64,000 nt of DNA, from the NCBI GenBank assembly GCA_964650515.1, contig CAZYUB010000009.1:25093-89092 (forward strand), written 5' to 3'. Positions 311 through 26,215 of the stretch are shown piece by piece (position 1 is the stretch's first letter; every line of letters begins with the position of its first letter). The notes beneath the pieces are model-generated. The model saw only the letters and a program-made list of their open reading frames with translations. It searched no databases and was not told where the DNA came from. This DNA is from an uncultured Planctomycetia bacterium (GTDB lineage Bacteria; Omnitrophota; Gorgyraeia; Pluralincolimonadales; Pluralincolimonadaceae). The translations under genes and the position numbers were made by a program.

Positions 311-1530
311 AGATACTCCGCCTTGATTGCCAGAGCGGCATAAGCGGCGACATGTTCATAGGCGCGCTGGCAGGATGCGGCCTCGACATGGGGCGGCTCG
401 CGTCGGGACTGCGTAAGATGAAGATAGGGAAGTACCGCATATCCGCCCGCAAGGTCAGGCGTTCCGGTATAGCGGGCGTCAAGTTCGACGTGGAATATGA
501 GAAGCACCACGGCCATGAACACACGCAGGAGAAGACCTTCGCGGGCATCTCGCGCGCGATAAGGGCTTCAGGGCTTTCCGCCCGCGTGAAGGATATGTCT
601 ATTGCGGTATTTACGAACCTCGCGAAAGCCGAGGCGAAAGCGCATGGCACAATCCCCGCAAAGGTCCACTTCCACGAGGTCGGGGATATCGATTCCGTGG
701 TCGATATTGTCGGCGCGTGCATAGGCATGGAAGCGCTCGGTATCGAGCGCGTATTCGCGTCCAATATCGTTTCGGGGTCGGGTACCGTCCTCGTGCACGG
801 AGCGGTATTCCCGAACCCCGCTCCTGCTACCGCGTACCTGCTGGAAGGGTTCGATATAACCATAGAGGACCTTCCTTTTGAACTCATAACGCCCACGGGA
901 GCCGCGATACTCAAGACGTTCTCCGCAGCGCGGGTTTCCGGGAATATCCCCGGATGCCGGATACTGAGGTCGGGTTACGGCGCCGGGTCTCTCGAGATAC
1001 CGGGGCACGCTAACCTGCTGAGGGCGATGCTGTGCGAGACGGCGGCAGAAGACATCGCAGGCGGGCCTCGCGACGCGTGCGTTGCAGTGCTCGAGACGAA
1101 CATTGACGACATGAACCCGCAGGTATATGGCTACCTTATGGATAAGCTTCTCGATGCCGGCGCGCTCGACGTATACGCGACGCCCGTCATAATGAAAAAA
1201 TCACGCCCCGGATGCGTGCTTACCGTCATCGCTGAAAAAAACAAAGCGCAACGTTTATCGGAAATTATATTCGAAGAAACGCCGACATTCGGCATCAGGC
1301 GCCACGATGCCGAAAGGACCGTACTCGGCCGTAAAATAGTTGAAGTAAACACAAAATATGGTAATATAAGGGTGAAGCTTGGCTTCAGCAACAGGAAGCT
1401 AATAACGGTTTCTCCGGAATTTGACGATTGCGCAAAAGCCGCAAAAAAGGCGAAGGTGCCGTTCGCGCGCGTAAGGCGCGAGGCCTTCGACGCGGCGCGA
1501 AAAGATAAGGGGGAGAAAGTCGGGCTTTGA
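307..1530 (+). CDS. larC: Nickel insertion protein LarC (pyridinium-3,5-bisthiocarboxylate mononucleotide nickel chelatase, DUF111 family)
   Basis: 407 aa. N-terminus [16 protein letters not shown] is the typical LarC/DUF111 start; expected length; overlaps larB by 4 nt. Confidence 0.8.
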
Positions 1531-3236
1531 TCAATAGAAGCAGGCTAATAGGCGAATACCTCAGGTCGATCGGGATACTCGACGAATCGCAGCTGAAGAG
1601 CGTCCTGAAATCCCAGTTGGAATCCGGCAGCCGCCTTTCCGAAGTCCTGAGCGGCATTGGCTTCATGCAGACCGAACAGCTTAGGGACCTCATCGTCCAG
1701 GAATTCTCCCTGGTCCGCGCGCCTATCTTCGACATGGAGATACCGTTCGATATCCTCTCAAAGATAAAACCAGCGGTAGCATACCGCCATAAGATGATCC
1801 CGCTGAAATTCGAGAACGGTATTCTGACCGTAGCCACCGATGACCCGCTCAACCTTCTTGCCCAGGACAACCTCGAATCATTTACCGGCGTGAAGCTCGA
1901 TTTCATCCTGAGTTCGGAGACGAACGTCAATATAGCGCTCGAAAAACATTACGGCGGCAGCAAGAACATCCTCGACGCGGTCGCGCAGAAGCAGGACGAT
2001 TCCGCCTCGGTCTCCTTCAAGGGAGTGGCAGGCGAGGTCGTAAAGGAAGAGCAGAAGGACGAAGCGCCGATAATCAAGCTTGTTACCCAGATAATATCGG
2101 AAGCCGTCAAGAACCGCGCGTCGGATATCCACGTTGAGCCGCTCGAAGACAAGTTCCGCGTGAGGTACAGGATAGACGGTGTATTGCACGAAGTGCCGGG
2201 CCCGCCTAAACAGCTGCAGCCTTCGATACTCAGCCGCCTGAAGATCATGGCCGGCATGAACATCGCCGAGAAGAGGCTGCCGCAGGACGGAAGGATAAGG
2301 ATCCAGGGCATGGGCAAGGACCTCGACTTGCGCGTCTCGACGCTGCCGGCGCTGTATGGCGAGAGCATCGTCATGAGGATCCTCGATAAGTCGAGCTTCA
2401 TGCTCGGCCTCGCGGAGTTGGGTTTTCTCCATGAGGACGCCGACACATTCGAGAAGCTCATCCATCTCCCTTACGGGATGTTGCTTATCACCGGCCCAAC
2501 CGGAAGCGGCAAGACGACTACGCTCTATGCCGCGCTGAGTTATATTAATAAGCCGAACAAGAAACTCATCACAGTCGAGGACCCGGTCGAGTACCAGATA
2601 TCCGGCATCAACCAGGTCCATGTGCGGCCGTCGATCGGGCTCACTTTCGCTTCCGGCCTCAGGACGATGCTCAGGCAGGCGCCCGACGTCATAATGGTCG
2701 GTGAGATCCGTGACTTCGAGACCGGTTCCATCGCGATCCAGGCCGCCCTTACCGGCCATCTGCTCTTCTCCACCCTGCATACGAATGATGCTGCCGGCGC
2801 GTTCACGCGCCTTATAGATATGGGAGTCAAATCATACCTTGTCAGTTCCACGGTCCAGGCGGTCATGGCGCAAAGGCTCGTGCGAAAGATCTGCCAAAAC
2901 TGCAAGGAGCCGTATAAGCCGACGATCGAGGAATTGTATGTGCTCGGATATAAGCCGGGAGACCCGAAGGCGGAAGAGCTCCAACTGTCCAAGGGCAAAG
3001 GATGCAAGATGTGCAACTATACCGGATATAAGGGAAGGATAGGGATATTCGAGCTCCTCGTCAACAATGACGAGATACGCGAGATGGTCGTCAAGAGGCT
3101 CTCCTCATACGAAATACGCGACGCCGCTCGCAGGAACGGCATGAAGCTGTTAAGGGAAGACGGCCTCAACAAGGTCAGGGAAGGCATTACTACGATATCC
3201 GAGGTCGTGCGCATCACGCACGGTTACGAGGAATAG
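1527..3236 (+). CDS. gspE: Type II secretion/type IV pilus assembly ATPase (GspE/PilB family) with N-terminal GSPII_E_N domain, paralog 1
   Basis: 569 aa. Walker A GPTGSGKTTT, Asp box, His box LHTNDAAG, tetracysteine CQNC...CKMC zinc motif, N1 domain present. Confidence 0.9.
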   Translation: MINRSRLIGEYLRSIGILDESQLKSVLKSQLESGSRLSEVLSGIGFMQTEQLRDLIVQEFSLVRAPIFDMEIPFDILSKIKPAVAYRHKMIPLKFENGILTVATDDPLNLLAQDNLESFTGVKLDFILSSETNVNIALEKHYGGSKNILDAVAQKQDDSASVSFKGVAGEVVKEEQKDEAPIIKLVTQIISEAVKNRASDIHVEPLEDKFRVRYRIDGVLHEVPGPPKQLQPSILSRLKIMAGMNIAEKRLPQDGRIRIQGMGKDLDLRVSTLPALYGESIVMRILDKSSFMLGLAELGFLHEDADTFEKLIHLPYGMLLITGPTGSGKTTTLYAALSYINKPNKKLITVEDPVEYQISGINQVHVRPSIGLTFASGLRTMLRQAPDVIMVGEIRDFETGSIAIQAALTGHLLFSTLHTNDAAGAFTRLIDMGVKSYLVSSTVQAVMAQRLVRKICQNCKEPYKPTIEELYVLGYKPGDPKAEELQLSKGKGCKMCNYTGYKGRIGIFELLVNNDEIREMVVKRLSSYEIRDAARRNGMKLLREDGLNKVREGITTISEVVRITHGYEE

Positions 3237-3238
3237 GT

Positions 3239-4972
3239 ATGGCTACCGAAAAAGACCAGCCGAAGCAGGAAAAATACAAGAGGATAGGGCAGCTGCTGCT
3301 CGACAAGAAGATGATAAATGAGCACCAGCTCGAGCAGGCACTCGAAGAGCAGAAGCTTACCGGAAAGCTGCTCGGAAGGATCTTCGTCGACATGGGCGTC
3401 GTGAAGGAGGACGATATCCTGCAGTTGCTCGGCGCGAGGTCGGGCTTCTCGGTCATAAAGCTCAAGGACATGAAGATCCCGAGGGAGGTCATCGATAAGG
3501 TCCCGGCTTCCGTCGCGAAGATATACACCATAATGCCGATCTCGGTTGAAGGCAACCAGCTCTCTATCGCGATAGCCGATCCGCTCAACGTCGCCGCGTT
3601 CGACGACCTGAGGTTCACGCTCGGCATGAACATAAAAGGCGTCGTCGCCAGCGACGAAGAGATAAAAGAGCAGATACAGAGGTATTACGGTTCCGAGGGC
3701 GAGACGATACAGGACGTGCTCGGTGTCTTCGGTGAGAAGATGGAGCTTGTCCCGGTCGGCGAAGAGGTTAACGACATCGCGACACTTCAGGAACTCGCGT
3801 CGCGCGCGCCCGTCATAAAACTCCTGAACATGATACTGCTTCAGGGCGTCAAGGAGAAGGCATCCGACATCCATTTCGAGCCGTTCGAACAGGATTACCG
3901 CATAAGGTATAGGGTCGACGGAGTGCTTTACGAAGTCGCGCGCCCTCCTAAAAATTTGAGTTTAGGCCTCTCATCCAGGATAAAAGTCATGGCGAACCTC
4001 GATATAGCCGAAAGGCGCCTGCCGCAGGATGGCCGTATAATGGTCACGATAGAAGGCAAGAGCGTCGACCTGCGTATCTCGACGCTGCCGACGATATTCG
4101 GCGAAAGCGTCGTCATGAGGGTCCTCGACAGGACTACCGTCAGTTTGTCGATAGATGAGGTCGGCATGCTCGACGACACAAAAAAGAAGATTCGTTCGAT
4201 AATACAGAAGCCAAACGGCATTTTCCTGGCGACGGGGCCGACCGGCTGCGGCAAGACGACGACGCTCTACGGGTGCATGAAAGAGATAAACAAGATAGAA
4301 TATAAGGTTATCACTACAGAAGACCCCGTAGAGTACGACCTGAAGGGCGTCATTCAGGTGCCTATCAACGCGAAGATAGGCCTCACGTTCGCGTCTTCAC
4401 TGCGCCATATATTGAGGCAGGACCCGGATATAATCATGGTCGGTGAGATAAGGGACGCCGAGACCGCGCAGATCGCGATACAAGCGTCGCTGACGGGCCA
4501 TCTCGTATTTTCCACCCTGCACACGAACGACGCCGCGGGAACGATAACGAGGCTTGTCGACATGGGCGTGGAGCCGTTCCTCGTAACATCCACGCTTGAG
4601 GCGGTCCTCGCGCAGAGGCTTGTCAGGAAGATATGCGCGTTCTGCAAGGAAGAGTATACGCCCGAGCCGGAGATCATCGCGGACCTCGGCATCAAGCCCG
4701 AAGAGGTAAAGTCGTATAAATTTTATAAGGGGGCCGGATGTGTGAAGTGCAACAATTCGGGATACAAAGGGAGGACCGGCATATACGAGCTCCTGATATT
4801 GAACGAGAAGATCCGCCAGCTTGTCATAGAAAGGGCGCATACCGCCCTTATAAAGAATGCCGCCATAGAGAGCGGCATGAAGACCCTGCTGCAAGACGGG
4901 CTTGATAAGATCAACGCGGGGATCACTAGCGTCGAGGAGGTATTGAAGGAAGCCCAGACCTCGATATTGTAG
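3239..4972 (+). CDS. gspE: Second tandem GspE/PilB-family secretion ATPase, paralog 2 (full length, with N1 domain)
   Basis: 577 aa. GPTGCGKTTT Walker A, LHTNDAAG, CAFC...CVKC tetracysteine motif. ~45% identical to paralog 1 by eye. Confidence 0.9.
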   Translation: MATEKDQPKQEKYKRIGQLLLDKKMINEHQLEQALEEQKLTGKLLGRIFVDMGVVKEDDILQLLGARSGFSVIKLKDMKIPREVIDKVPASVAKIYTIMPISVEGNQLSIAIADPLNVAAFDDLRFTLGMNIKGVVASDEEIKEQIQRYYGSEGETIQDVLGVFGEKMELVPVGEEVNDIATLQELASRAPVIKLLNMILLQGVKEKASDIHFEPFEQDYRIRYRVDGVLYEVARPPKNLSLGLSSRIKVMANLDIAERRLPQDGRIMVTIEGKSVDLRISTLPTIFGESVVMRVLDRTTVSLSIDEVGMLDDTKKKIRSIIQKPNGIFLATGPTGCGKTTTLYGCMKEINKIEYKVITTEDPVEYDLKGVIQVPINAKIGLTFASSLRHILRQDPDIIMVGEIRDAETAQIAIQASLTGHLVFSTLHTNDAAGTITRLVDMGVEPFLVTSTLEAVLAQRLVRKICAFCKEEYTPEPEIIADLGIKPEEVKSYKFYKGAGCVKCNNSGYKGRTGIYELLILNEKIRQLVIERAHTALIKNAAIESGMKTLLQDGLDKINAGITSVEEVLKEAQTSIL

Positions 4973-4979
4973 TTTTTTG

Positions 4980-5000
4980 CGCCTTTGACAAAGGCGTTTT
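4980..5000 (+). terminator. Weak intrinsic-terminator-like hairpin (6 bp stem cgcctt/aaggcg, 5 nt loop) followed by TTTT
   Basis: Read directly in the gspE2-gspF intergenic region; also preceded by a T6 tract. Confidence 0.3.
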
Positions 5001-5013: not shown

Positions 5014-5041
5014 TATATTATAGATTAAGGGAGAACAGGTT

Positions 5042-6307
5042 ATGGCAATATTCAACTACGTCGCTATAGACAAGGACGGCAAGGAGACAAAAGGCAGGCT
5101 CGAGGTAGCCGGGAACCAGGAAGCTATGGACCAGATCCGGCAGAAGGGCCTATACCCTATTAGCATAACCGAGGAGAAGTCGAAGTCGGATATGCCCTCC
5201 TCGAGGGGAAGGGAGGGGTCGGCGGACGTGAAACCCGCAAGGTCCGGCATGACGATCTCATTCGGCAGGGTCAGCGCGAAGCAGGTGACGATATTCACAA
5301 GGCAGCTGGCAACGCTTATAGGGTCCGGCCTGCCGCTCGTCCGCGCGCTATATGTCCTTGAAAGGCAGGAAAAAGCCGGACTGTTGAAGGCGACGATACG
5401 CGGCCTCGCAGAGCAGGTAGAGGGAGGAAGCTCGTTCTCAGAAGCGCTTTCAAAGTTCCCGAGGGCGTTCGAGCCGTTGTATGTCAATACCGTGAAAGCG
5501 GGCGAAGCGGGCGGCGTCCTTGAGGTCGTATTGACGCGACTCGCTGAGTTCGCGGAGAAATCCCAGAGGTTGGAAGGCAGGATCAAATCCGCGATGATAT
5601 ACCCCGCGCTCGTTCTCACCATGGCTTTATCGGTCCTTGGCTTCCTTATAACGTTCATCGTCCCGAAGTTCCTGCAGATATTCAAGGAAATGAACGTGGA
5701 GTTGCCCGTTATGACAAAAGTGCTCCTCGTCGTCAGCGATTTCGCGAAGAGCAAATGGTATATAGGCCTCGCATTGATAGGATTGGGCATAATGCTCTTT
5801 AATATACTGTACAGGCTGCCCGCGACGAAACTTCTGATAGACAAGGCCAAGCTTGAGATACCCGTTATGGGCCAACTCGTAAGGAAGATAGCCATAGCGC
5901 GTTTCTCGAGGACCCTCGGCACGCTGCTCTCCAGCGGCGTCCCGATATTGCAATCGCTCATGGTCGCCAAGGATACGACAGGCAACGAAGCGATGGCGCG
6001 CTCGATCGTAGTTGTCCATGACGCGGTAAGGGAAGGCGAGACGGTCGCGAAGCCGCTGCTGAAGGCAGGGCTCTTCCCCGCGATGGCGGTAAATATGATC
6101 TCGGTAGGCGAGGAGACGGGCGCCCTGGACCAGATGCTCCTCAAAGTCGCAGACGTATATGATGAAGAGGTCGATGTCACCGTAACCGGCCTCATGTCCA
6201 TACTTGAACCGTTCTTGATCATCGGGCTGGGCCTCATAGTAGGTTTCATAGTCATCGCTATGTTCCTGCCGCTGTTCCAGCTCGTAACCGCGCTAGGAGG
6301 TGGTTAA
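5042..6307 (+). CDS. gspF: Type II secretion inner-membrane platform protein GspF/PilC
   Basis: 421 aa. Two T2SSF repeats (…LATLIGSGLPLVRAL…/…LGTLLSSGVPILQSL…) and three TM segments. Confidence 0.9.
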   Translation: MAIFNYVAIDKDGKETKGRLEVAGNQEAMDQIRQKGLYPISITEEKSKSDMPSSRGREGSADVKPARSGMTISFGRVSAKQVTIFTRQLATLIGSGLPLVRALYVLERQEKAGLLKATIRGLAEQVEGGSSFSEALSKFPRAFEPLYVNTVKAGEAGGVLEVVLTRLAEFAEKSQRLEGRIKSAMIYPALVLTMALSVLGFLITFIVPKFLQIFKEMNVELPVMTKVLLVVSDFAKSKWYIGLALIGLGIMLFNILYRLPATKLLIDKAKLEIPVMGQLVRKIAIARFSRTLGTLLSSGVPILQSLMVAKDTTGNEAMARSIVVVHDAVREGETVAKPLLKAGLFPAMAVNMISVGEETGALDQMLLKVADVYDEEVDVTVTGLMSILEPFLIIGLGLIVGFIVIAMFLPLFQLVTALGGG

Positions 6308-6821: not shown

Positions 6822-7175
6822 ATGAAAAGGAGCGGTTTCACCCTCATTGAGATCGTCATCGCGCTGGCCATCCTGGCTGTCGGCCTCGTGGGGATCCTTT
6901 CACTCTTTCCCATCGGTTTTGATTCCGCGAGAAGGTCCGTCAGCGCGACGCAGGCGACCATATTCGCGAACGAACATCTCGACGAGCTGAAGAACAGCGG
7001 CTTTCCCGCGCTCGGCTCCACCTCCGGCACATTCGCAGACCCCGCATATTCATGGACCCAGACGATATCGACGACCACGGTAAACGACCTCAGGCAGGTC
7101 ATCTGCACCGTAAGCTGGGGCCAGGGCAACAGGACATTCCAGAGGGCATTCACTACAAATGTCGCTAACAGGTAG
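6822..7175 (+). CDS. Minor pseudopilin, GspI-like size (117 aa)
   Basis: Class III signal peptide MKRSG|FTLIEIVIAL with Glu+5; small size typical of GspI. Confidence 0.65.
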   Translation: MKRSGFTLIEIVIALAILAVGLVGILSLFPIGFDSARRSVSATQATIFANEHLDELKNSGFPALGSTSGTFADPAYSWTQTISTTTVNDLRQVICTVSWGQGNRTFQRAFTTNVANR

Positions 7176-7914
7176 AAGGCGCATAACCGGCAGGGCCGGG
7201 CTCACTCTCGTCGAGATACTCGTCGTCGCGGTGATATTCACTATCCTGGTCCTCGCGCTTTTTACCGTCTTCAGGGGCGCGCTTGATTCATGGCGCAAGT
7301 CCGAGACGCTCCTCGACATGTACCAGAACACGAGGTTTACTTTCGAGCTTATGCGCAAGGAGATACCGGCATCGGTGCTCTACCAGGGGTCCAACAACAC
7401 CGCCTACTGGACGAAGTTCGAGGGCAACGACAGCGGGAGCGCCGCGATAATAAAGACAAATTCGGTAGGCGACGAACTTTTCTTCGTCGCGCCGGTCGCC
7501 GGCAACCCCGGGGACCAGGACCTCTGCGAGGTCGGGTATTGGTTGCGCAACGATAACTGCCTCATGAGACATTTCGAATATTACGACGGCAGCACGGTGC
7601 CGGTGGCCTACGATTTCGCCGTCAATAACGCCGGCACGACGTCGGCCGATGTAATCGCGCGCAACGTATCGGCGATCAGTTTTGTTTACTATTACAGGAA
7701 CGCCGTGGGCGCGGTGCCGTCGGCAACGGCAACGAGCTGGGACTCAAGCACCGACACGCTGACCGGCGGTAACCAGAATATTGATTCCTCCGGCAACGCG
7801 CTCATACCGGACGGTTTGCCCGAAGCGGTAGAGGTCTCCCTGACCGTCCAGAGCAGGGACGGCCTTCAGCAGAAGACGTTCACGGATTTCATCCTAATTC
7901 CGGGTGCAAGATGA
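7159..7914 (+). CDS. Minor pseudopilin, GspJ/GspH-like (251 aa)
   Basis: Prepilin-type N-terminus …GRAG|LTLVEILVVAVIFTIL with Glu+5, preceded by a basic leader. Confidence 0.6.
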   Translation: MSLTGRRRITGRAGLTLVEILVVAVIFTILVLALFTVFRGALDSWRKSETLLDMYQNTRFTFELMRKEIPASVLYQGSNNTAYWTKFEGNDSGSAAIIKTNSVGDELFFVAPVAGNPGDQDLCEVGYWLRNDNCLMRHFEYYDGSTVPVAYDFAVNNAGTTSADVIARNVSAISFVYYYRNAVGAVPSATATSWDSSTDTLTGGNQNIDSSGNALIPDGLPEAVEVSLTVQSRDGLQQKTFTDFILIPGAR

Positions 7915-15619: not shown

Positions 15620-18220
15620 ATGAACAAGAGAAGAAAGAAGGGCGTCGCGCTTATCATTACGGTAGGGATCCTCGCGCTGCTGGCCATGATCGCTACCTCT
15701 TTCGCCTACAACATGATGTTCGACCTAAAGGGCGCCGCAAATTATGTATTGAAGATGAAGGCGAAGAACGCGGCTGAGGCGGGAATAAATATGTCTATCG
15801 CCTACCTGCGGCAGCTTGCCGCGAGCGACTTCAACGCGGTGCCTACAAGCGCGTGCGATTGGGCATATACAAGCGCCACGCAGCCGTCGTTTGACGGGCG
15901 TGACGGGGCGGCAGGCAATTCAACGAGCGGACTGCTCGGAGATGTCGGCAGGGGCCATATCGCCGTATGCTCATTGAGGGTGACCGACACAAATTCGCAG
16001 ATAAACATCAACGACACAAACCCGAACCTGAATGTCATCCTGGGAAACCTCGGGACCATATTGTCCATACCGGGATGGGCCCAGGCAAATGCGGACAGCA
16101 TGATATCCGGGAGGCCTGCTGGCGGTTATGCGACCAAAGAAGGGATAGTCGAATTTATGCCGGGTGCCGACCTGACGGCAAAGAGGGTTAATTACGCCCT
16201 TATAAGGGATTTCGTGACCGCCAACAGCTATATCGACCAGTACAGCGAGGACGCGACGGCGCCGATGCCTACCAGCAACAACTACCAAAGCAAGTCGCCG
16301 GTAAACATCAATACCGCAAGGAGAGAGGTGTTGCGCGCGGTCCTGCGCCCTCTTGTCAGCACTGACGCGAATGCGTCGCAGGTAGCCGGCGCGATCATTA
16401 CGGCGAGGACTATGGTATCGCCGTTCCGGAGCTGGAACGGGGCCGCGTCGGCGGGCGGCTTTAATTCCTTTATCGACAATATCAACCCTACAATATTGAC
16501 CAATCCCCAGAAAGACGCCATCAAGAACAACTTCAATCCCAATAAGGTCAAGCAGGGCGCGTATACTACGGATTTCTGTTTCCATCCGGGAGGTTTCTAC
16601 GAGATCATCTCGACCGGCACAGTCGGAATAGATAATAATTCGGACGGGGCGGTCGAGGATGCAAAAGCAAGGCAGGAGCTTACCGCTATCGCAAGGATAT
16701 ACAGTATCCTTAATTATACGGCAAAAGAGCAGTTCCGCGGCGAGGACGCGAACTACAACGGCATCCTGGACGCGGGCGAGGACGCGAATGGGAATGGTGC
16801 GATCGATAGCCCTACGTTCCAGAACGTGACATGGATGAACTCATGCCCGGTGGTCTCGACGGAAGGCGACGGCGTGAAATACCCTGCGGTTGGAGGCTAC
16901 ACGACCGTGCCTAATTCGCTGAAGCTAGGAGTGTGGGATAATTTCGACGAGGATAATTATGACACGAACGGCGACGGGAAGGCCGAGACGGGTTTCAGCC
17001 TGTGGGCATGGTCGAATGAATCCGGCGCCGGGTCTAAGATGGAATTCAAGGAGTGCGATGGTGACGGAGATTGGGAGATGTATGGAGAAGGCGTCTATTT
17101 TGGTTCTCCGTGGATATTCCCGAAGTTCGTGTTAAGGTCTGATTGGGTGTTCGGGAATAGGTTCTCTTTGAGGGGTTTTACGTGCCCGATACCAGCTGGT
17201 GACGGCACCGAGGATGGCGGGCGTATACAATTTACCAATTCAAACGGCAGCACAACATATGGGCAGTTTATGCTGCGGAGATGGGGATTCGACTATTGGT
17301 CCGGCGTCAGAGATATAACAAGGCCCCCGACCGTGGCGCAGCCCATAGGTACAGTGAAATGGGATGACCAGGCGACGGCAGATTCCCACGCAAAAAAGGG
17401 CAAGGATTTTTCAGATACAACCGTATATTTGAGATTAAACGGCAGCAATCACCGCGTATACAGGTTGGGAGACCTGTACGGATATACGGACCAATTTACG
17501 GACCATTACAATTTTTGTACCGATCCCTCATCAGTCCCCGTCACATTTTACGAAGAGGGTATCGATAGGTATCACGGTGTCATGCCGGAGATATATGCCC
17601 TCAAACTTGCGGTAAGCCCAGACCTATCGCCGAACTATAGGGCATGGATTGCAGTAGGCAATATTAATATTGCCGAGCTTTATGATTATAATGCAGGGAC
17701 GTATTCCGGGTTTACTCCATGTGTTGCGCCGTCCTCGAATTTCATGGCCGTACCGCTGCATGCAAGCTCTCAACCTTCTTATGACAGGTACGGATGCGAT
17801 AAGAGCCCGTGTTCGAGTAACACGTGGAGTATCAATACGTGGTATTTGACGCTGTTTTTGAATCACAGCGATGGTTTCTGGGAAGAAATAAGGGTCCTGT
17901 CAAATACCGGTTTTTATCAATCACCTGTTTTTGCGGGATCCTTATTTAATGGCGGGAATCCTGTAGTATGGGGCACCGGTTCATGGACACTGAGTATCCC
18001 CTCGACAGCCGACCCGGCAAAAGAAACATGCATCGTGCAGTTCAACACCGGAAGCGGATTGACTGCGGCGACGTTTAACGGCGCTATAGGCGGGGTCTCA
18101 AATTCAATTATATACAGGATTAATTTGGCATCTACCGATACCGATTGCAGTGAGACGCCGGTCTTTGAGGATTTGACCATAACTTACTTGCCGAGGGCAA
18201 GTGTTGTCTACCAGAGGTGA
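15620..18220 (+). CDS. Giant GspK-like pseudopilin paralog 3 (~866 aa) with tandem EF-hand-like loops
   Basis: N-terminus KKG|VALIITVGILALLAMIATSFA. ~75% protein identity to paralog 2 over the first ~150 aa. DANYNGILDAGE-DANGNGAID loops. Motifs SLKLGVWDNFDEDNYD and WMNSCP. The ATG at 15620 has a GAGG RBS; the upstream ATG at 15530 overlaps the -10 box and is rejected. Confidence 0.7.
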   Translation: MNKRRKKGVALIITVGILALLAMIATSFAYNMMFDLKGAANYVLKMKAKNAAEAGINMSIAYLRQLAASDFNAVPTSACDWAYTSATQPSFDGRDGAAGNSTSGLLGDVGRGHIAVCSLRVTDTNSQININDTNPNLNVILGNLGTILSIPGWAQANADSMISGRPAGGYATKEGIVEFMPGADLTAKRVNYALIRDFVTANSYIDQYSEDATAPMPTSNNYQSKSPVNINTARREVLRAVLRPLVSTDANASQVAGAIITARTMVSPFRSWNGAASAGGFNSFIDNINPTILTNPQKDAIKNNFNPNKVKQGAYTTDFCFHPGGFYEIISTGTVGIDNNSDGAVEDAKARQELTAIARIYSILNYTAKEQFRGEDANYNGILDAGEDANGNGAIDSPTFQNVTWMNSCPVVSTEGDGVKYPAVGGYTTVPNSLKLGVWDNFDEDNYDTNGDGKAETGFSLWAWSNESGAGSKMEFKECDGDGDWEMYGEGVYFGSPWIFPKFVLRSDWVFGNRFSLRGFTCPIPAGDGTEDGGRIQFTNSNGSTTYGQFMLRRWGFDYWSGVRDITRPPTVAQPIGTVKWDDQATADSHAKKGKDFSDTTVYLRLNGSNHRVYRLGDLYGYTDQFTDHYNFCTDPSSVPVTFYEEGIDRYHGVMPEIYALKLAVSPDLSPNYRAWIAVGNINIAELYDYNAGTYSGFTPCVAPSSNFMAVPLHASSQPSYDRYGCDKSPCSSNTWSINTWYLTLFLNHSDGFWEEIRVLSNTGFYQSPVFAGSLFNGGNPVVWGTGSWTLSIPSTADPAKETCIVQFNTGSGLTAATFNGAIGGVSNSIIYRINLASTDTDCSETPVFEDLTITYLPRASVVYQR

Positions 18221-19501: not shown

Positions 19502-21100
19502 ATGGGAAAACGTGCTCTTGGAATCGATATAGGCGCAGGCTCAGTCAAGCTCGTAGAGCTTGAAAAGACATCCGAAGGCGTGCAACTCCTCCGGGCAAAG
19601 TTTTTTGACCTCACACAGCACCCAGACCAGGAGAAACGCGAGGCCCTCGTAAGGGAGGGGCTCGAGGGGCTCCTCAAGACAGAAAAGATAAGAAGCGGCA
19701 ATACCGCAATATCCCTCTCAGGCCAGTCGGTCTTCATAAGGTTCCTGAAACTCCCCAAGATACAAAAAGGCAAAGTAGACAAGATAATAAAGTACGAGGC
19801 CCAGCAGCAGGTCCCGTTCCCCCTCGATAAGATAACCTGGGACCACCAGATATTCCACAGCGGCGCCGGCCCGGAAGAGGACGTGCTGTTTGTCGCCGCC
19901 AAGAAGGAGCTCGTCGAGGCCACGCTGCTGAATTTCTCAAGGACAGGCCTTGATGTAGAATCCGTCGACGTAAGCCCTCTCTCGCTGCTCAACGCGATCA
20001 CCTATAATGAGCCGCTCGCGAAAGGCGTAATAATAGATATAGGCGCGAAGGCGACAAACCTGATAGTCCTCGACGCGAAGGGCTTCTGGGTACGCTCGGT
20101 GCTCATCGCCGGCGATGAGATGACGCACGCGATAGCTTCTAAGATGAACATCCCGTTCGACAAGGCTGAAGAGCTCAAGCGCAAGGAGGGCATGGTCGTC
20201 CCGTCGGACAGTTTGGTGCCCTCGAACATAAGCTCCACGGGCCAGGAACTCGTAAGTATCCTCAATACCGTCGTATCCGACATGGTCTCGTCTATAATAC
20301 AATCCCTCGAATTCTATAAGTCGAAGCACGGCAGGGATATGGTCTTCGGCGAGGTCATACTTTCCGGCGGCGGCTCCAAGCTGAAGGGAATAGAGGATTA
20401 CCTCGCGAAAGGCCTCGGGATGCAGATAAGGCGCGCCAACCTCGGCCAGAAGATAAAATGCCCTTCGAACCTCAGGGTGGACATAGATTTCCAGTCGAGG
20501 TTCGGCGCCGCGATAGGCCTCGGGCTGCGCCTGCTGCAGAGATGCCCGACGAATATCGACCTGCTTCCGGCCGAAAGGAAAGAGGACAGGGATTTCAGGA
20601 AGGAAAGGATTTGGATAATCGCCGCGGGGGTCATGCTGTCGCTTATACCTTTCACTATAGCCATGAACATATGGTTCCAGTCCGGCGCTTTAAGGAAACA
20701 GATATTATTCCTCGATGATATATTGGCCCAGTATGACGACGTGAAAGCGAAGATAGCGACGCTTAAGGATGACATCAAGAAGGGCGAGCAGAGGATAAAA
20801 CCGCTTGAGAACGTTGCCGTCAGGAGGTCCCTGCTGCTGGAGGCGCTGCTTGAGGTTGAGAAGCTGCTGCCGAAAGAGACGTGGCTTACCTCGTTAAGCG
20901 AAGAGAAGGATTGGATCTCCATAGAAGGCAGGACCTCTGAGAACCTCCTTACGATAACGGAGTTCAAGAACAAGCTCTCGGCATCCCCGTTATTCGAATC
21001 GGTAGAGATAATCTACGCGAGCCTCCCGAAGGATTCAGAGGAAGGCATGGGCCAGTTGAGGGACTTTTCTATTAAGTTCAAGCTGAAGGCAGGGAAATAA
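19502..21100 (+). CDS. GspL-like assembly protein = PilM (actin-like ATPase fold) fused to PilN (TM + periplasmic)
   Basis: N-terminal GIDIGAGSVKLVEL and …ILSGGGSKLKGIEDYL… are PilM motifs. After a TM segment (IWIIAAGVMLSLIPFTIAM) there is a coiled-coil/PilN-like periplasmic domain. Confidence 0.8.
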   Translation: MGKRALGIDIGAGSVKLVELEKTSEGVQLLRAKFFDLTQHPDQEKREALVREGLEGLLKTEKIRSGNTAISLSGQSVFIRFLKLPKIQKGKVDKIIKYEAQQQVPFPLDKITWDHQIFHSGAGPEEDVLFVAAKKELVEATLLNFSRTGLDVESVDVSPLSLLNAITYNEPLAKGVIIDIGAKATNLIVLDAKGFWVRSVLIAGDEMTHAIASKMNIPFDKAEELKRKEGMVVPSDSLVPSNISSTGQELVSILNTVVSDMVSSIIQSLEFYKSKHGRDMVFGEVILSGGGSKLKGIEDYLAKGLGMQIRRANLGQKIKCPSNLRVDIDFQSRFGAAIGLGLRLLQRCPTNIDLLPAERKEDRDFRKERIWIIAAGVMLSLIPFTIAMNIWFQSGALRKQILFLDDILAQYDDVKAKIATLKDDIKKGEQRIKPLENVAVRRSLLLEALLEVEKLLPKETWLTSLSEEKDWISIEGRTSENLLTITEFKNKLSASPLFESVEIIYASLPKDSEEGMGQLRDFSIKFKLKAGK

Positions 21101-21102
21101 AT

Positions 21103-21867
21103 ATGGCAAAGGGCATTAAGCCGCATGTGATGACGAAGCTTGTGCTGGGGCTCGTATTCCTGGGGTCCCTTTGCGTCGCCATATTTGTCGGCTACGACAG
21201 GTCTTCCTTAGAGAAGTCCATACAGGACAAGACAGGAGAGCTCGAAAGCTATGAGGACCAGGGGCTTTCCGTCCTTAACAGGGAGCGGCTGAAGCTTGAA
21301 AAACAGCTTAAATCCCTGAAAGACGTGAATGACCAGCTGAATACCGGCCTTTTCACCAGCCCGAAGGCCAGGATGCCTAAGGAAGCCGGCGACGCCCTGA
21401 AGTTCAAGGAAGAGCTTTACAGGGTCCAGAACAAGATAAAGGAAGAAGGGGTGCCGATAGATTTCCAGTTCCCGTTCTGGCTCGGTTTCGAAAGATACGA
21501 GCATGATATTCCCGTTTCTGCCGACCTTCCCGTCAGGGCCAAGCAGCTCGAGATAATAAAAGAGATCATGGACCTGATGCTTCAGGCGAAGGTCCCCGAG
21601 GTATCGTCCGTAGAATTCCTCGAGTCGAAGAACATTACCTATGACGGCGGCAAGGAGCCGATGTTCAGGGAGTTCCCTGTGAGGATATCGTTTAAGTGCA
21701 AGAACGATAACCTTCTCGGTTTCCTGTATAAGGTCTATGTTTCCGGGATACCTTTCAGGGTAGACGTACTCAAGATCAAGGTACTTAACGAAGAGACCGG
21801 CGAAAAGGGCGAACTTAAAGTGGAAGCCGTGATAGTGGCTGCCATACAGCAGGCGGAAAAGATATGA
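21103..21867 (+). CDS. PilO/GspM-like bitopic inner-membrane assembly protein
   Basis: Single N-terminal TM (LVLGLVFLGSLCVAIFVGY), coiled coil, ~250 aa, positioned after the PilMN fusion. Confidence 0.55.
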   Translation: MAKGIKPHVMTKLVLGLVFLGSLCVAIFVGYDRSSLEKSIQDKTGELESYEDQGLSVLNRERLKLEKQLKSLKDVNDQLNTGLFTSPKARMPKEAGDALKFKEELYRVQNKIKEEGVPIDFQFPFWLGFERYEHDIPVSADLPVRAKQLEIIKEIMDLMLQAKVPEVSSVEFLESKNITYDGGKEPMFREFPVRISFKCKNDNLLGFLYKVYVSGIPFRVDVLKIKVLNEETGEKGELKVEAVIVAAIQQAEKI

Positions 21868-22535
21868 AAGGCATATATAAGATCGCCGCGATAGCGCTGT
21901 TCGTATTATGGTTCATATTGCTATGGTCGGCGCCGTCTTTATTCACGCCGAAGGATTTCTCCGTCCCGACGGGCGAAGATAATATCGTTAAGCCAGACGA
22001 TACAGCAGTTGACGCGTCTGACGTTTATTCAGCCCTTATAGAAAGCGTTAAATCGCCGTTTGCCGCTGCGAGATACCAGCAGCTCCTCGACAGGAACCTG
22101 TTCATGAGGCCGGAAGCGCCCCCGGTCGTTTTCACGCCGGACAAGCTTAAGGTCGTGTCTATCGGGGCCACGAACCTGCCCTTCATGTATACCGGTTTCA
22201 TACAGAAGCAGGACGGCACGATGATAGGCCAGATTAACTGGTCGGGGAAGACATATTTCGCTAAGAAAGGCGAAAAATTCAAGGATTATAAGGTTATCGA
22301 GATAAATTCGAAACAGATAAGGGCCGAGAACAAGGACGGGCAGCTTACAATGGAGTTCAAGAAGCCCGTAAAGAGCAAGGAACTGATCGGAAAGCTCTAC
22401 AGCTCTATGGACGATAAGACCTTTGAAGTGAAAAAGGGAGATGAGATAAACGGTTATAAAGTTCTTGACATTAAGGCCGATAGTGTGATACTATACGGCC
22501 AGGATCAAGAGTGGGTCATTAAAAAGGGGAGATGA
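21864..22535 (+). CDS. PilP/GspC-like protein (TM anchor + two beta-sandwich HR-like modules)
   Basis: N-terminal TM; …KLKVVSIGATNLP…GQINWSGKTYFAKKGEKFKDYKVIEINSKQIRAENKDGQLTMEF resembles the PilP/GspC HR fold; the position in the operon fits. Confidence 0.45.
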   Translation: MKGIYKIAAIALFVLWFILLWSAPSLFTPKDFSVPTGEDNIVKPDDTAVDASDVYSALIESVKSPFAAARYQQLLDRNLFMRPEAPPVVFTPDKLKVVSIGATNLPFMYTGFIQKQDGTMIGQINWSGKTYFAKKGEKFKDYKVIEINSKQIRAENKDGQLTMEFKKPVKSKELIGKLYSSMDDKTFEVKKGDEINGYKVLDIKADSVILYGQDQEWVIKKGR

Positions 22536-22540
22536 TATAA

Positions 22541-23659
22541 ATGGATATTACCAATGGGGTTAAAAGAACGGTTCTGCCGTTTTTTTGTATCTTTCTGACT
22601 TTCAATTTATTCTTTATTATCTCATTGTATTATTTTGCCGGAGGCGAAGCCCACGCTGCCACGGGGAGTGGTTATTCTAATGATTCCCTGGAGGCAAAGA
22701 TTATCGCCGAAGACCTGGCAAAGCAGAAAAAAGTAGAAAAAAAATCCCTCGTTTCAGACCTCTTTAAGCAGGCAAAGGCCTCATATGACGCGAAAGATTA
22801 CGAGACCTCCCAGAAGATATTCGAAAGAGTCGTCCAATTAGACCCGAAGAACAAGCAGGCCTCCCATTATATAGAATTATGCAAGGAAGGCATGGCTAAG
22901 GATGTCCCCGCGTCTATATCGGGCACCCTTATGAAGAGGGGTAAAGCGAATTACGCGAACAAGCAGTATGCGGCCGCGATAGCGGACTTTGAGACGGCGT
23001 TGGCAGCGAACCCGAGCGACTCGGAGGCCAGGTTGTGGCTTGAGAAGGCGCGCAGGGGGGAGGAGCTGTACTCAAGGGAGAAATCCACAAAAGAAGAACG
23101 TAAAGATATAGTAAACGACAGGAAGGTCCTGAAGGAAGAGAAGGACACTGCGGAGCAGGCGGCCCTGCGCGATGTCGACAAGGGTTGGCTGCCCCCGGCC
23201 GCTCCGGTTAAGGAAGAGTTACAGGTCGAGGAGGTCATATCGGAATCCGAGAGGGCCGAACAGGAAGCCAAGAAGGCGCTTATCGACAAGATGCGCAGCG
23301 TAATGGTCCCCGCGATCTCGGTCACTGACGCGGATATCCAGGACCTGATACGCCAGCTCATGGAGATGACCGGCGTCACGATAGTCGTGGATGAAAGGGA
23401 GCTTGCGGCCCTTACGAAAGACGCTCCCATAAAGATATCATTGAGCACCGCTACCCCGATGCCGTTGCTGGACGTGCTCGATATAGCGTTCAAGACGACG
23501 CAGTTGGGTTATAAGGTAGAGCCGAATTACGTATACGTAACGAGCAAGCGCATGAGGGACATTGAAGACCTCGTGACAAGGACATACAAGCTTAAATACC
23601 CGGAGCGCAAGACGAGGGAAGTCAAACTGAAGGAATTTGAGGCCAAAGAGGCGGAATAA
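22541..23659 (+). CDS. Membrane-anchored TPR-repeat protein with C-terminal secretin N0/STN-like domain
   Basis: N-terminal TM, TPR-like helical repeats, and a charged coiled-coil linker. C-terminal …VPAISVTDADIQDLIRQLMEMTGVTIVVDE…PLLDVLDIAFKTTQLGYKVEPNYVYVTS matches the N0/STN fold pattern found at PilQ/GspD N-termini. Confidence 0.5.
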   Translation: MDITNGVKRTVLPFFCIFLTFNLFFIISLYYFAGGEAHAATGSGYSNDSLEAKIIAEDLAKQKKVEKKSLVSDLFKQAKASYDAKDYETSQKIFERVVQLDPKNKQASHYIELCKEGMAKDVPASISGTLMKRGKANYANKQYAAAIADFETALAANPSDSEARLWLEKARRGEELYSREKSTKEERKDIVNDRKVLKEEKDTAEQAALRDVDKGWLPPAAPVKEELQVEEVISESERAEQEAKKALIDKMRSVMVPAISVTDADIQDLIRQLMEMTGVTIVVDERELAALTKDAPIKISLSTATPMPLLDVLDIAFKTTQLGYKVEPNYVYVTSKRMRDIEDLVTRTYKLKYPERKTREVKLKEFEAKEAE

Positions 23660-23661
23660 AC

Positions 23662-24777
23662 ATGGGAAAAAATCTCTGTCTTTTCGCGCTGGCGTCCCTT
23701 CTCATACTCCCCCGCATGGTGTCCGCAGAGGACATCAATGTCGCGAATTACCTGAAGGACAGCCTTCCTCCGCAGGAAGGCAGGAAGATAACGTATAACC
23801 AGGCATCGAAGCTCCTGACCGTCACAGACACCAAGTCGAACCATAACCTGATAAAAAACCTTATCAAGCAGTTCGAGATAGGCCCGAAACAGGTCATGAT
23901 CGAGACGAGGTTCGTGGAAGTCGACGTTACCGACCTCATGGAAATCGGTATTGAATGGGACTTCTACAAGCAGGGGCATCCGAGCGGCAAGGGTTTCAGG
24001 GGCATGCGCTGGGGTGATGCTACTTATGGCGCCGATTACCAGGGTGTCCACTGGAATAATGACCTTGAATCCACGTTCCCTATAACCGGGAATTTTGCCG
24101 GCCAGTTAGCGCTCTATAAAGTGCTTGAATCAGGCGATTATATAGTATCGAACCTCAGGGCCTTGGCGGAACAGGGTAAAGTGAACCTGCTGTCGTCCCC
24201 GAAGATCACGACGGTAGCCGGCCAGATGGCGAATATCCAGGTAGTCAGGACCCAGCCGTATGTTTCGGACTTTACGCTTGAGAATATCGGTACGGCGGAA
24301 GACCCTATATGGAGCTATAAGTTGACCCTCGCGGAGAAGCCGATAGGCATATTCCTCGAGGCCACTCCTTACGTTACCGAGGGTTCGAACACGATAACGC
24401 TTGACCTCCATCCTGAAGTCAGCATTATGCGCGACCAGGTAAGGATCTCGACACTTACGACAAGCGGCGAGACCGGCGAGCTCGGCAACGTTACGGCTGA
24501 CGATTCGGTGCCGCTCATTCCGGAAGACCTCGGATGGCCCGTGGTGGACGTCAGGACTACGCAGACCAGCGTCGTCGTCGACAGCGGACAGACGATAGTC
24601 CTCGGCGGTATGATCAAGGATGAAGAGCAGGTCATCAAGAGGAAGGTCCCGGTATTGGGGGATATACCGCTCCTGGGAAAGGCCTTCCAGTATGATTACA
24701 AAGAACAGCGCAAGAAGAACCTCCTTATATTCATCACGGCGAGTATCATCAATGCCAGAGGGGAGGTAATAAGGTGA
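23662..24777 (+). CDS. gspD: Short secretin 1 (signal peptide + one N-ring domain + secretin domain; lacks N0)
   Basis: …VMIETRFVEVDVTDL… (Secretin_N); …LRALAEQGKVNLLSSPKITTVAGQMANIQVV…TSVVVDSGQTIVLGGMI…KVPVLGDIPLLGKAF…KNLLIFITASII is the secretin C-domain signature. Only 371 aa. Confidence 0.85.
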   Translation: MGKNLCLFALASLLILPRMVSAEDINVANYLKDSLPPQEGRKITYNQASKLLTVTDTKSNHNLIKNLIKQFEIGPKQVMIETRFVEVDVTDLMEIGIEWDFYKQGHPSGKGFRGMRWGDATYGADYQGVHWNNDLESTFPITGNFAGQLALYKVLESGDYIVSNLRALAEQGKVNLLSSPKITTVAGQMANIQVVRTQPYVSDFTLENIGTAEDPIWSYKLTLAEKPIGIFLEATPYVTEGSNTITLDLHPEVSIMRDQVRISTLTTSGETGELGNVTADDSVPLIPEDLGWPVVDVRTTQTSVVVDSGQTIVLGGMIKDEEQVIKRKVPVLGDIPLLGKAFQYDYKEQRKKNLLIFITASIINARGEVIR

Positions 24778-25895
24778 AAAATATGATAAGAGCGTTCTTA
24801 TATACACTGGTAATATCTGTGATAGCCGTGACGTCAGCTTGTATCCCGTTGTGCTATGCGCAGGAAGTAGGCGAGGCGGCTGCCGAGACATCCGTGTCGG
24901 CTGCGGAAGCATCTACGATAAAGGAATACCTGCAGCAGGCGCTTCCTGATAATCCCGAGAGGAAGATAGTCCTGGACGAGGTAACGGGCGTGCTTACGGT
25001 TACGGATACGCCGAGCAACCAGGCGCTGGCAAAGGACCTCATAATGCTTTGGGACACGGGCCCGAGCCAGGTAAAGATCCAGGCGAGATTTGTCGAGATA
25101 GAGATGACGGACGTCGAGGAACTCGGCGTTGAGTGGTGGTGGGCAAGGGAGGACAGGCATTCGGAAAAGAACGGCCGTTTTAGCAATATGGGCGTGAACA
25201 TGTTCTCACCGTCGATAAGTGAAAATGCCGACGATGCCGCGATATTCGGTATGGCCAACGAAACATCAGGCCTTGGCCTTAAGCTGGGCAGGTTCACCCA
25301 GGCCGGCAGCGTCATACAGGTATACTTGAAGGCGCTGCAGGAAGAGGGGAAGGCGAACCTGTTGTCGTCGCCTACGGTAACGACCCTTTCAGGGCAGATG
25401 GCGAACATACAGCTGGCAAATATAGTCCCCTACGCGTCGGATTTCACGAGGACGAATATAGGCAGCCCGGAGTTCCCGGTAATGGTCGAGGTCTATAAGG
25501 TGGCCGAGAAGGTCACCGGGATAATGCTCGAGGTCACTCCTACGGTCGCCGGCGACAGCCAGGTGGTCACGATGGATATACATCCCGAGGTAAGCGTTCT
25601 TGTGGACCAGCTTCCGATAACGGCTTCTACCGAGTTCCCGGACGGCCTAGGATACCCGGTCATAGACACGAGGACGGCGCAGACATCGGTAGTAATAAAG
25701 AGCGGCGAGACGGTCGTGGTCGGAGGCCTTATCAGGGAAGACGAGAATGTGACGAAGAAGAAGGTCCCGTTCCTCGGCGATGTCCCGCTGGTCGGCAACC
25801 TTTTCAAGACGCACCATACGAACAGCGTAAAGAAGAATCTTGTGATATTCCTCACGGCGACGGTACTTAACTCAAGAGGAGAGCCGGTGCTATGA
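24774..25895 (+). CDS. gspD: Short secretin 2 (tandem paralog; 373 aa)
   Basis: …VKIQARFVEIEMTDV…; …LKALQEEGKANLLSSPTVTTLSGQMANIQL…TSVVIKSGETVVVGGLI…KVPFLGDVPLVGNLF…KNLVIFLTATVL. Start overlaps the stop of secretin 1 by 4 nt. Confidence 0.85.
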   Translation: MKNMIRAFLYTLVISVIAVTSACIPLCYAQEVGEAAAETSVSAAEASTIKEYLQQALPDNPERKIVLDEVTGVLTVTDTPSNQALAKDLIMLWDTGPSQVKIQARFVEIEMTDVEELGVEWWWAREDRHSEKNGRFSNMGVNMFSPSISENADDAAIFGMANETSGLGLKLGRFTQAGSVIQVYLKALQEEGKANLLSSPTVTTLSGQMANIQLANIVPYASDFTRTNIGSPEFPVMVEVYKVAEKVTGIMLEVTPTVAGDSQVVTMDIHPEVSVLVDQLPITASTEFPDGLGYPVIDTRTAQTSVVIKSGETVVVGGLIREDENVTKKKVPFLGDVPLVGNLFKTHHTNSVKKNLVIFLTATVLNSRGEPVL

Positions 25896-26215
25896 AACGC
25901 AAGCTTATAGCCATGTCGGTGGTATTGGCCGCGGCTGTTGCCGCTTCGACGGTATTCGCGCAGGTCATAACGAAAACAAAATCCTCGGCCGGCAAACAGA
26001 AGGACATTGTACTTACGACGGCTGACATGAAGGACTCCTATAAGGTCGTCGGGATCGTGTCGGCCCGCGGTGGAGAAGTAAATCTGGACGGTTTGAATGC
26101 AAAATTGAAGGATGCGGCCAGGGACCTGGGAGCCGATTGCGTCATAGGCATCAATTACTTCAACTATAGCGGCTACGTCTATGCTTATGGCACGGCAATA
26201 AAGCTCAAGGAATAG
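25892..26215 (+). CDS. Small secreted protein (107 aa), weak UPF0145/YbjQ-like similarity; last gene of the secretion operon
   Basis: Signal peptide MKRKLIAMSVVLAAAVAASTVFAQ. …LGADCVIGINYFNYSGYVYAYGTAIKL loosely resembles the YbjQ family (…GANAVIGVDIDYE…GTAVKV). Confidence 0.35.
   Translation: MKRKLIAMSVVLAAAVAASTVFAQVITKTKSSAGKQKDIVLTTADMKDSYKVVGIVSARGGEVNLDGLNAKLKDAARDLGADCVIGINYFNYSGYVYAYGTAIKLKE

Follow-up and report, generated by a model that had tools for sequence, protein, structure and literature searches.

A conserved gene cluster of Omnitrophota for a probable type IV filament with giant GspK homologues as candidate glycan-binding tips

The window analysed here, 64,000 nt of contig CAZYUB010000009.1 from an uncultured member of the Omnitrophota (assembly GCA_964650515.1, positions 25,093 to 89,092), carries at its positions 1527-26215 a real gene cluster that is conserved across this uncultured phylum. 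We propose that the cluster probably encodes a type IV filament of the kind found in the Planctomycetes-Verrucomicrobia-Chlamydiae (PVC) group, intermediate between type IVa pili (T4aP) and secretion systems of type II (T2SS), and that this filament shows alternative glycan-binding tips for attachment. Nineteen co-directional genes on the + strand, delimited by open reading frame (ORF) listing and translation, form an uninterrupted run with intergenic gaps of at most about 150 nt. Their order recurs in no fewer than 15 further genomes, which rules out a pattern due to chance. Our argument proceeds from gene content, homology and synteny, with the window proteins scored against Pfam, NCBIfam and PDB profiles (cutoffs quoted are those of the models), and from the predicted folds of two proteins, the GspK homologue g09 and its partner g10. 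An earlier sequence-only reading of the same DNA had named the parts of such a machine, and all of them are present where it had placed them, on the + strand (Table 1).

Since a prepilin/GspK N-domain is present in each, we take the three giant GspK homologues (g07, g09 and g11, homologues 1 to 3) to be true GspK derivatives with carbohydrate-binding-type heads. Matches to NF037980 (T2SS_GspK) span the first 130-200 residues of all three. Each has a GspK-type class III signal (KRG/VALII..., without Glu5) as well as the GspK-type KININ and NINTA motifs, and the structural marks of the GspK family were found as well: an N-terminal prepilin-like helix without Glu5, and a pilin beta-sheet into which an alpha-domain is inserted. 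The sequence-only reading had called three oversized GspK-like proteins here and was right to do so, the type III prepilin N-domain on which that call depends being present in all three. The g11 protein is 48% identical to g09 over its full length, and g07 aligns with the g09 family end to end in hhalign (probability 100, E 7.8e-78, 709 columns; the g09 family alignment has 33 members). What sets g07 apart is that its K core contains an inserted PA14 domain, in the place of the second half of the g09 alpha-domain, the part with the NINTA segment; the C-terminal module is common to all three giants. DxNxNG calcium-loop motifs number four in g09, four in g11 and none in g07, and two of the g09 loops (370 and 382) directly precede a beta-sandwich. 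The adhesin-type domains claimed for the giants are divided among them, PA14 in g07 and calcium-loop motifs in g09 and g11.

An AlphaFold2 model of g09 (pLDDT 80.4, pTM 0.79), examined with Foldseek, consists of a GspK core followed by a C-terminal ConA-like lectin/glucanase domain. XcpX/GspK was the top structural match (E 8.5e-8, target TM 0.66); a PDB search with the g09 sequence alone returned nothing significant. Profile comparison extends the same predicted layout to g07 and g11. K would therefore come in three alternative versions, each a GspK core with a ConA-like beta-sandwich, plus either PA14 or calcium-binding loops, and given a K core with a ConA-like extension, the filament would present a carbohydrate-binding head of ~90-105 kDa. 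Glycan-directed attachment to other cells or to polysaccharide surfaces would be the most likely role, with different tips conferring different specificities.

The family to which g09 belongs is large but unstudied. Its hidden Markov model (HMM), searched against 1.84 billion representatives, matched 596 clusters at E <= 1e-30, and among the 150 matches listed nearly all were 550-1250 aa long. Homologues of g09 with a named organism are almost all from Candidatus Omnitrophota, a phylum that the NCBI taxonomy places within the PVC group, as it does Akkermansia. In the library searched, we found no paper describing giant GspK proteins in PVC bacteria. Outside the phylum, giant K-like ORFs were seen in the sister phyla Auribacterota (L053:9959-13024, 1022 aa; L numbers denote loci from our genome scan) and Planctomycetota (L057:2103-4850, 916 aa); their resemblance to the Omnitrophota family is limited to the N-terminal GspK part, which suggests that oversized K proteins with other heads may be a wider theme of the PVC group.

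Each giant K gene is followed by a companion gene. A beta-helix protein (g08) and two copies of a second protein (g10 and g12, partners 1 and 2) had already been noticed among the K genes, and they are there. In related loci the beta-helix gene always follows the PA14-type K, and a lectin-type K is usually followed by a gene for a TPR-like partner; a K-partner pair also occurs alone, away from machine genes, in locus L002. The AlphaFold2 model of g10 (pLDDT 83) shows a signal peptide, a small beta domain of five strands and a TPR-like solenoid; its fold matches are generic (TPR, BamD, 14-3-3), with no Foldseek match below E 1e-3. A pilotin or chaperone identity for g10 was considered and rejected as unproven on such generic matches. 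Even with E values up to 10 allowed, Pfam had nothing meaningful to offer for g10 or g12, nor for g14 and g15 (discussed below). A word-filtered search returned 14 homologues of g10, and the three with a named organism are all Omnitrophota. The two companion types share an N-terminal module, since in three loci (L077:2995-4326, L061:3864-5015 and L062:10588-11763) the beta-helix companion opens with a small beta domain of the g10/g12 type (ADIIYLKxGGxxEGxII; blastp E 4e-15 to 1e-3). The companion (a beta-helix protein where K is of PA14 type, a TPR-like exported protein where it is of lectin type) probably chaperones the head, docks on it or complements it.

The beta-helix companion also bears on a different explanation, in which the tips are enzymatic: a ConA-like glucanase or lyase, together with a beta-helix polysaccharide lyase, would be delivered against prey or host walls or polymers. 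The g08 protein does match pectate-lyase-like and NosD families, and it has been proposed that Omnitrophota live as predators (PMC10066038; 10.1101/2023.11.21.568195). Three observations on the K proteins argue otherwise. The top fold matches of the ConA-like domain are non-catalytic carbohydrate-binding modules and lectins, a motif search did not find the GH16 catalytic motif ExDxxE in any of the three, and the invariant residues of the g09 family lie mostly in the linker and core, with no obvious active site. We consider enzymatic tips quite improbable. A DNA-uptake (competence) pilus, in which the helix-hairpin-helix region of K binds DNA, seems to us very improbable indeed. Its basis is that g09 homologues carry Pfam HHH_3 matches, that one source labels a homologue ComE-like, and that the NINTA motif is conserved; helix-hairpin-helix motifs, however, are a normal part of the GspK alpha-domain, the PA14-type K has PA14 in place of the half of that domain with the NINTA segment, the modules added to K are of a carbohydrate-binding kind, and no ComEA, ComEC or DprA gene lies nearby in the 64-kb window.

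Comparison with relatives shows which parts of the locus are fixed and which vary. We scanned GTDB species genomes and obtained 78 loci; nearly all come from metagenome-assembled genomes of Omnitrophota, and in Auribacterota and Planctomycetota there are matches confined to the N-terminal part. When all window proteins were compared with these loci by tblastn, the same order was found in many Omnitrophota species: two ATPase genes, then F, G, I and J, a PA14-type K with its beta-helix gene, one or two K-partner pairs, the PilM-PilN fusion, g14, g15, the TPR-N0 gene, secretins 1 and 2, and g19, which encodes a small exported protein. The nearest genome, JBAZJG01 (L003), has an identical gene order that includes both K-partner pairs. 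The number of K cassettes per locus varies from one to three, and extra orphan K genes occur elsewhere in the same genomes. Loci L004 and L005 keep the type formed by homologue 2 and partner 1 and L009 keeps that of homologue 3 and partner 2; because they are differentially retained, the two pairs are old paralogues and not the result of a recent duplication. Identity to the L003 orthologues is 96-98% for the ATPases, GspF and the PilM-PilN fusion, but 77% for the GspG-like pilin, 62% for the PA14-type K and 57% for the beta-helix protein. Faster divergence of pilin and tip parts than of the machine is the pattern expected if these parts are exposed, and we regard it as supporting, indirect evidence.

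In the proposed mechanism, two GspE/PilB-type ATPases would drive the GspF platform, and at least the second may respond to cyclic di-GMP (c-di-GMP) through its MshEN motif. That two full-length GspE ATPases lie in tandem had been claimed before and holds (Table 1). They are 45% identical to each other. ATPase 1, which has intact Walker A, Walker B and tetracysteine motifs, scores 632.7 bits with the NCBIfam PilB model (TIGR02538) and 620.6 bits with GspE (TIGR02533), both slightly below cutoff; ATPase 2 scores 655.3 bits with TIGR02533, above the cutoff of 630.25, and 652.5 bits with TIGR02538, so that both proteins fall slightly short of the PilB cutoff of 675.65. The c-di-GMP motif model NF053729 gives 61.2 bits for ATPase 2, above its cutoff of 38. 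GspF is the top F-family match of the platform protein (TIGR02120, 412 bits against a cutoff of 424). In one related locus a true PilT gene lies between two GspE/PilB genes (L025:3498-4577; TIGR01420, 446.5 bits against a cutoff of 319.1), and four others (L022, L023, L034 and L047) have a similar short ATPase at that place between two ATPase genes, which points to a dynamic pilus. Two side observations concern the ATPases. Several tandem MshEN-type N-domains lie 5' of or inside the first ATPase gene of a marine Omnitrophota locus (L022:1-1309), an arrangement that recalls Thermus PilF, and the window encodes a small stand-alone GGDEF (diguanylate cyclase) protein 5 kb 3' of the locus (30917-31435, + strand), for which a functional tie to ATPase 2 and its c-di-GMP-type motif is possible.

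The ATPases and platform would polymerise the GspG-like pilin below a tip in which I, J and a single K prime assembly. The C-terminus of the GspG-like pilin, DIRSAGPDRTYGNTDDITNW, aligns with the Ca-site region of a GspG of known structure (PDB 5wda); the protein is above the Pfam cutoff (35 against 21 bits) and below that of TIGR01710 (59 against 88.85). The GspI-like protein reaches 38.1 bits with the gspI model, whose cutoff is 44.35. The gene for the GspJ-like protein lies between the I and K genes and is kept in 27 loci. Support for a putative tip complex of I, J and K comes from the I-J-K gene order. As only 25 nt separate G and I, the locus has no GspH gene, and GspH, a prepilin peptidase, PilT and further pilins were not found anywhere in the 64-kb window.

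Between platform and outer membrane, the PilM-PilN, Amuc_1100/PilO-like and putative PilP-like proteins would connect to a channel composed of two paralogous short secretins and a separate TPR-N0 protein. Here the locus matches all three NCBIfam families (Amuc_1098, Amuc_1100 and Amuc_1101) drawn from the Amuc_1098-Amuc_1102 'pili-like' cluster of Akkermansia muciniphila, and on these matches the platform and secretin half is a distant relative of that cluster; because all scores are far below the equivalog cutoffs, its parts are distant homologues and not orthologue-level matches. The Akkermansia cluster as described has five genes, without ATPases, pilins or a giant K, and its proteins are abundant in the cell envelope (PMC5332112). 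The PilM-PilN fusion exceeds the pilM cutoff of TIGR01175 (145.7 against 133 bits). For g14, in the PilO position, a family profile searched against the PDB retrieved the Amuc_1100 entries 6lad and 6kny at 2.2e-8 and then, faintly, PilO (E 0.5-0.9); the single sequence retrieved nothing significant there, so that in the PDB Amuc_1100 is reached by the family profile only. A literature search for a structural link between Amuc_1100 and PilO found nothing. The next protein, g15, is retained in 21 loci; the earlier description of it as GspC/PilP-like stands as far as its position and faint C-terminal matches go, with nothing stronger found and no match for its family profile in the PDB.

The secretin is split in the window: the TPR-N0 protein and the short secretins match different parts of one Amuc_1098 model, the former at model positions 158-370 of 805, and in two related loci a TPR-N0 region and a secretin form one ORF (L025:15930-18050, 707 aa; L018:6410-8542, 711 aa). 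This confirms a split that had been read from the sequence. An inner-membrane location of the TPR-N0 protein, which was part of the same claim, is less certain, for the protein, like the unsplit homologues, may begin with a signal peptide that is cleaved. The two short secretins are 42% identical, and both paralogues occur in tandem in at least 12 related loci. Short secretin 1 matches GspD at 1.5e-45 over the C-terminal half only; measured against cutoffs, the pair score 156 and 175 bits with the GspD model (351), at positions ~300-595 only, and 138-167 bits with PilQ (284). Neither is therefore a full-length GspD with N0-N3 and secretin domains, the N0-like part being on a separate protein. 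Homologues of g14 and g15 are likewise joined in one ORF of ~410 aa in three loci (L025:14661-15890, L013:7189-8421 and L020:6267-7496); gene boundaries of the machine are fluid among Omnitrophota.

Against this background the locus could also be read as a genuine T2SS, in which folded exoproteins are driven through the secretin by a short pseudopilus in the periplasm and the enlarged K heads recognise cargo or are released; the beta-helix protein or glycoside hydrolases could be among the substrates. A Ca-site motif marks the GspG-like major pilin, ATPase 2 exceeds the GspE cutoff, GspF is the best F-family match, I, J and K are ordered as in T2SS, the locus encodes an exported beta-helix protein, and T2SS-like loci have been tied to exported proteins in Omnitrophota (10.1101/2023.11.21.568195). 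Because the pilin is GspG-like, the best ATPase and platform matches are GspE and GspF and no PilT lies in the window, this alternative keeps real weight, although on the whole we judge it unlikely. Both the enzymatic and the DNA-uptake readings are less likely. No match to GspL or GspM was found in the locus, GspH is missing and a GspC with HR and PDZ domains was not recognised; a PilM above its cutoff, PilN and an Amuc_1100/PilO-like protein are there instead. The secretins, which are of Amuc_1098 type, fall far short of the GspD cutoff, orthologous loci have PilT inside them, the major pilin and K proteins diverge fast in the manner of exposed parts, and multiple alternative K cassettes are hard to reconcile with a piston. 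With PilM-PilN in place of GspL and a true PilT in a related locus, the machine leans towards a pilus over a classical T2SS, which was also the preference of the sequence-only reading.

Several points nevertheless weigh against a pilus with glycan-binding tips, beginning with the T2SS signatures just listed and the absence of both PilT and prepilin peptidase from the window. The filament would have to be exported and so large a head would have to pass through the secretin. The structural models cover one K (g09) and one partner (g10), and no complexes. ConA-like folds include glucanases and lyases, and the adhesive tips first suggested from the sequence, a plausible idea that our results strengthen, could still turn out to be enzymatic heads.

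The proposed filament combines known parts: modular pilins and the PVC-type pilus machine are already described kinds. Modular pilins were defined by Raynaud et al., with PA14 and lectin modules among the commonest architectures (PMC8179133), and the PA14 of g07 and the ConA-like fold of g09 are such non-pilus functional modules joined to an N-terminal pilin module. Streptococcus sanguinis PilC and PilB similarly consist of a pilin carrier and an extra module, a ConA-like lectin in PilC and a vWA domain in PilB; PilC is a lectin-bearing pilin that binds glycans, its tip location coming from modelling (Shahin et al., PMC9934059). In the Omnitrophota locus, by contrast, the carrier is GspK-type, the machine is a diderm one of PVC type, the heads are much larger and K-companion cassettes are present. 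Compared with the GspI-GspJ-GspK tip of T2SS (3CI0 from enterotoxigenic Escherichia coli; XcpVWX of Pseudomonas aeruginosa, 5VTM), K is 2.6-3 times longer, has a ConA-like domain with PA14 or calcium loops, and is encoded in three alternative forms that all have a companion gene of their own. T4a pili with a PilY1/PilC tip resemble the locus in PilM and PilN, in its candidate PilO/P/Q-type parts, in the PilT of related Omnitrophota loci and in carrying a large adhesin on a minor-pilin priming complex, as proposed here. They differ in that no PilY1 beta-propeller protein is encoded here, the head is part of the pilin itself and the major pilin is GspG-like, not PilA-like.

Other systems are more remote. 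The Verru_Chthon cassette A-D of Verrucomicrobia (TIGR02596-02600) is also a small prepilin-type set with a very large member (the model of protein A has 1296 positions), and its models B, C and A match the I-like, the J-like and two of the K proteins at their N-termini (E 1e-4 to 1e-7). We rejected membership of that cassette; the similarity stops after the first ~40-60 residues and amounts to 20-32 bits where the cutoffs are 51-332, and the rest is unrelated. In Omnitrophota, Seymour et al. (2023) found T4aP clusters in nearly all genomes and proposed host-cell attachment (PMC10066038); since their main text is without minor pilins or PilY1, it does not describe the giant K proteins, the companions or the split secretin. 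Their clusters often adjoin an F-type ('symbiotic') ATPase; we searched the 64-kb window for one and found none. The T2SS-like locus upstream of giant genes reported by West-Roberts et al. was set aside, as it has rcpC and a rotamase, both absent here, and no giant (>20 kb) gene lies in the window. The architecture as a whole had been thought undescribed. That is too broad, given the Amuc_1098/1100/1101 families, Omnitrophota T4aP and the known lectin and PA14 modular pilins; what is apparently new are the K-companion cassettes, the split and duplicated secretin and the twin ATPases.

These elements can be joined in a bolder proposal, which we offer tentatively and think more apt to be wrong than right. 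The locus would encode the organ with which ultra-small Omnitrophota recognise hosts or prey. This would be a PVC-type pilus able to retract, which owes its specificity to exchangeable two-gene 'tip cartridges' and leaves the cell through a heteromeric secretin. A cartridge would comprise a GspK-lectin or GspK-PA14 head and a cognate companion that docks by the shared small N-terminal beta domain, and the secretin, an unprecedented assembly of two paralogues and a detached TPR-N0 ring, would be widened or gated for a ~100 kDa head. If this is true, the number and sequence of cartridges should track host range. Omnitrophota are widespread, mostly ultra-small and uncultured, and the suspicion is that they live on other cells or prey on them. 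For partner recognition in this phylum the locus provides testable candidates, namely three lectin- or PA14-headed tip subunits that evolve fast and vary in copy number. It also puts Amuc_1100 of Akkermansia, much studied as a probiotic effector, at the PilO position of what would be a conserved pilus machine of the PVC group, and the paired secretins with a detached N-terminal half and the paired assembly ATPases are unusual features worth structural study. Should the tips prove to be ordinary secretion parts, interest would drop to that of a divergent T2SS.

For two genes the coordinates in Table 1 depart from the longest ORF. That of the beta-helix gene opens at 10771, overlapping the end of g07 by 100 nt, which is likely too early; the real start is likely 10876 or 10882, where a signal peptide follows. 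The ORF start of the third K gene at 15530 is likewise likely too early, and 15620 (MNKRRKKG/VALI) the real one.

Table 1. Genes of the locus at window positions 1527-26215, with the matches on which each assignment is based
Gene product	Position	Strand	Evidence
ATPase 1, GspE/PilB type, 569 aa, N-terminal MshEN	1527..3236	+	Pfam T2SSE 2.5e-141; MshEN 1.9e-14
ATPase 2, GspE/PilB type, 577 aa, MshEN domain with c-di-GMP-type motif	3239..4972	+	T2SSE 2.2e-142
Inner-membrane platform protein GspF/PilC	5042..6307	+	T2SSF 1.1e-58, two stretches
GspG-like major (pseudo)pilin, 165 aa	6300..6797	+	T2SSG 1.6e-8; N_methyl 2.4e-7; canonical G/FTIIE site, Glu5
GspI-like minor pilin	6822..7175	+	TIGR01707 gspI 1.6e-9, XpsI 1.4e-9 (both below cutoff); GFxxxE motif
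GspJ-like minor pilin	7159..7914	+	T2SSJ 1.1e-4 (23 bits, cutoff 28); N_methyl
Giant GspK homologue 1 (g07), 986 aa	7911..10871	+	NF037980 GspK 7.1e-13; PA14 3.4e-8
Exported right-handed beta-helix protein (g08), companion of PA14-type K	10876..11766	+	Beta_helix 4.8e-10; pectate-lyase-like 6e-6; signal peptide
Giant GspK homologue 2 (g09), 831 aa	11769..14264	+	NF037980 5e-15; GspK core, 4 DxNxNG Ca loops, ConA-like lectin/glucanase domain
Partner 1 (g10), 397 aa	14273..15466	+	Signal peptide, small beta domain, TPR-like helical solenoid; no Pfam match
Giant GspK homologue 3 (g11), 866 aa from likely start	15620..18220	+	NF037980 1.5e-12; PilX_N 8e-6; T2SSK 1.3e-4
Partner 2 (g12), 402 aa	18217..19425	+	Partner 1 paralogue, 43% identity over 376 aa
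PilM-PilN fusion, Amuc_1101-like	19502..21100	+	PilM_2 7.3e-33; PilN 1.2e-9; NF045709 Amuc_1101 family 6.8e-81
Amuc_1100 homologue (g14), PilO position	21103..21867	+	NF038287 Amuc_1100 family 1e-9
Putative PilP/GspC-HR-like protein (g15)	21864..22535	+	Position; faint C-terminal matches PilP 1e-3, GspC (GspC_delta) 1e-2
TPR + N0-like protein, split-off N-terminal half of Amuc_1098-type secretin	22541..23659	+	TPR_2 3.4e-10; weak N0 and STN matches; NF042912 Amuc_1098 family 2.8e-13
Short secretin 1	23662..24777	+	Secretin 2.5e-37; Secretin_N 2e-6; Amuc_1098 family 5.3e-42
Short secretin 2	24774..25895	+	Secretin 3.1e-42; Secretin_N; Amuc_1098 family 2.8e-35
Small exported protein (g19), 107 aa, last gene of locus	25892..26215	+	Signal peptide; weak YbjQ-like match 6.7e-4; same position in 13 loci

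The locus is flanked by LarC upstream (307-1530) and by PolA and glycogen synthase downstream (from 26316), and the rest of the 64 kb is housekeeping in character, the GGDEF protein and the genes of the Wood-Ljungdahl methyl branch included. A 689-aa ORF at 40920-42989 (+ strand) has no Pfam match at E <= 1e-4. Directly after it, at 42996-50614 (+ strand), lies the Wood-Ljungdahl methyl-branch/one-carbon cluster, with genes for formate-tetrahydrofolate ligase, an FTCD-like cyclodeaminase, FolD, an MTHFR pair and a MetH-like B12 methyltransferase; acetogenic metabolism has been reported for some Omnitrophota, and the cluster is consistent with it. All assigned genes of window positions 1-64000 are on the + strand, and GC skew and AT skew are above zero in each 2 kb bin, giving a purine-rich coding strand and a very strong strand bias over the whole 64 kb.

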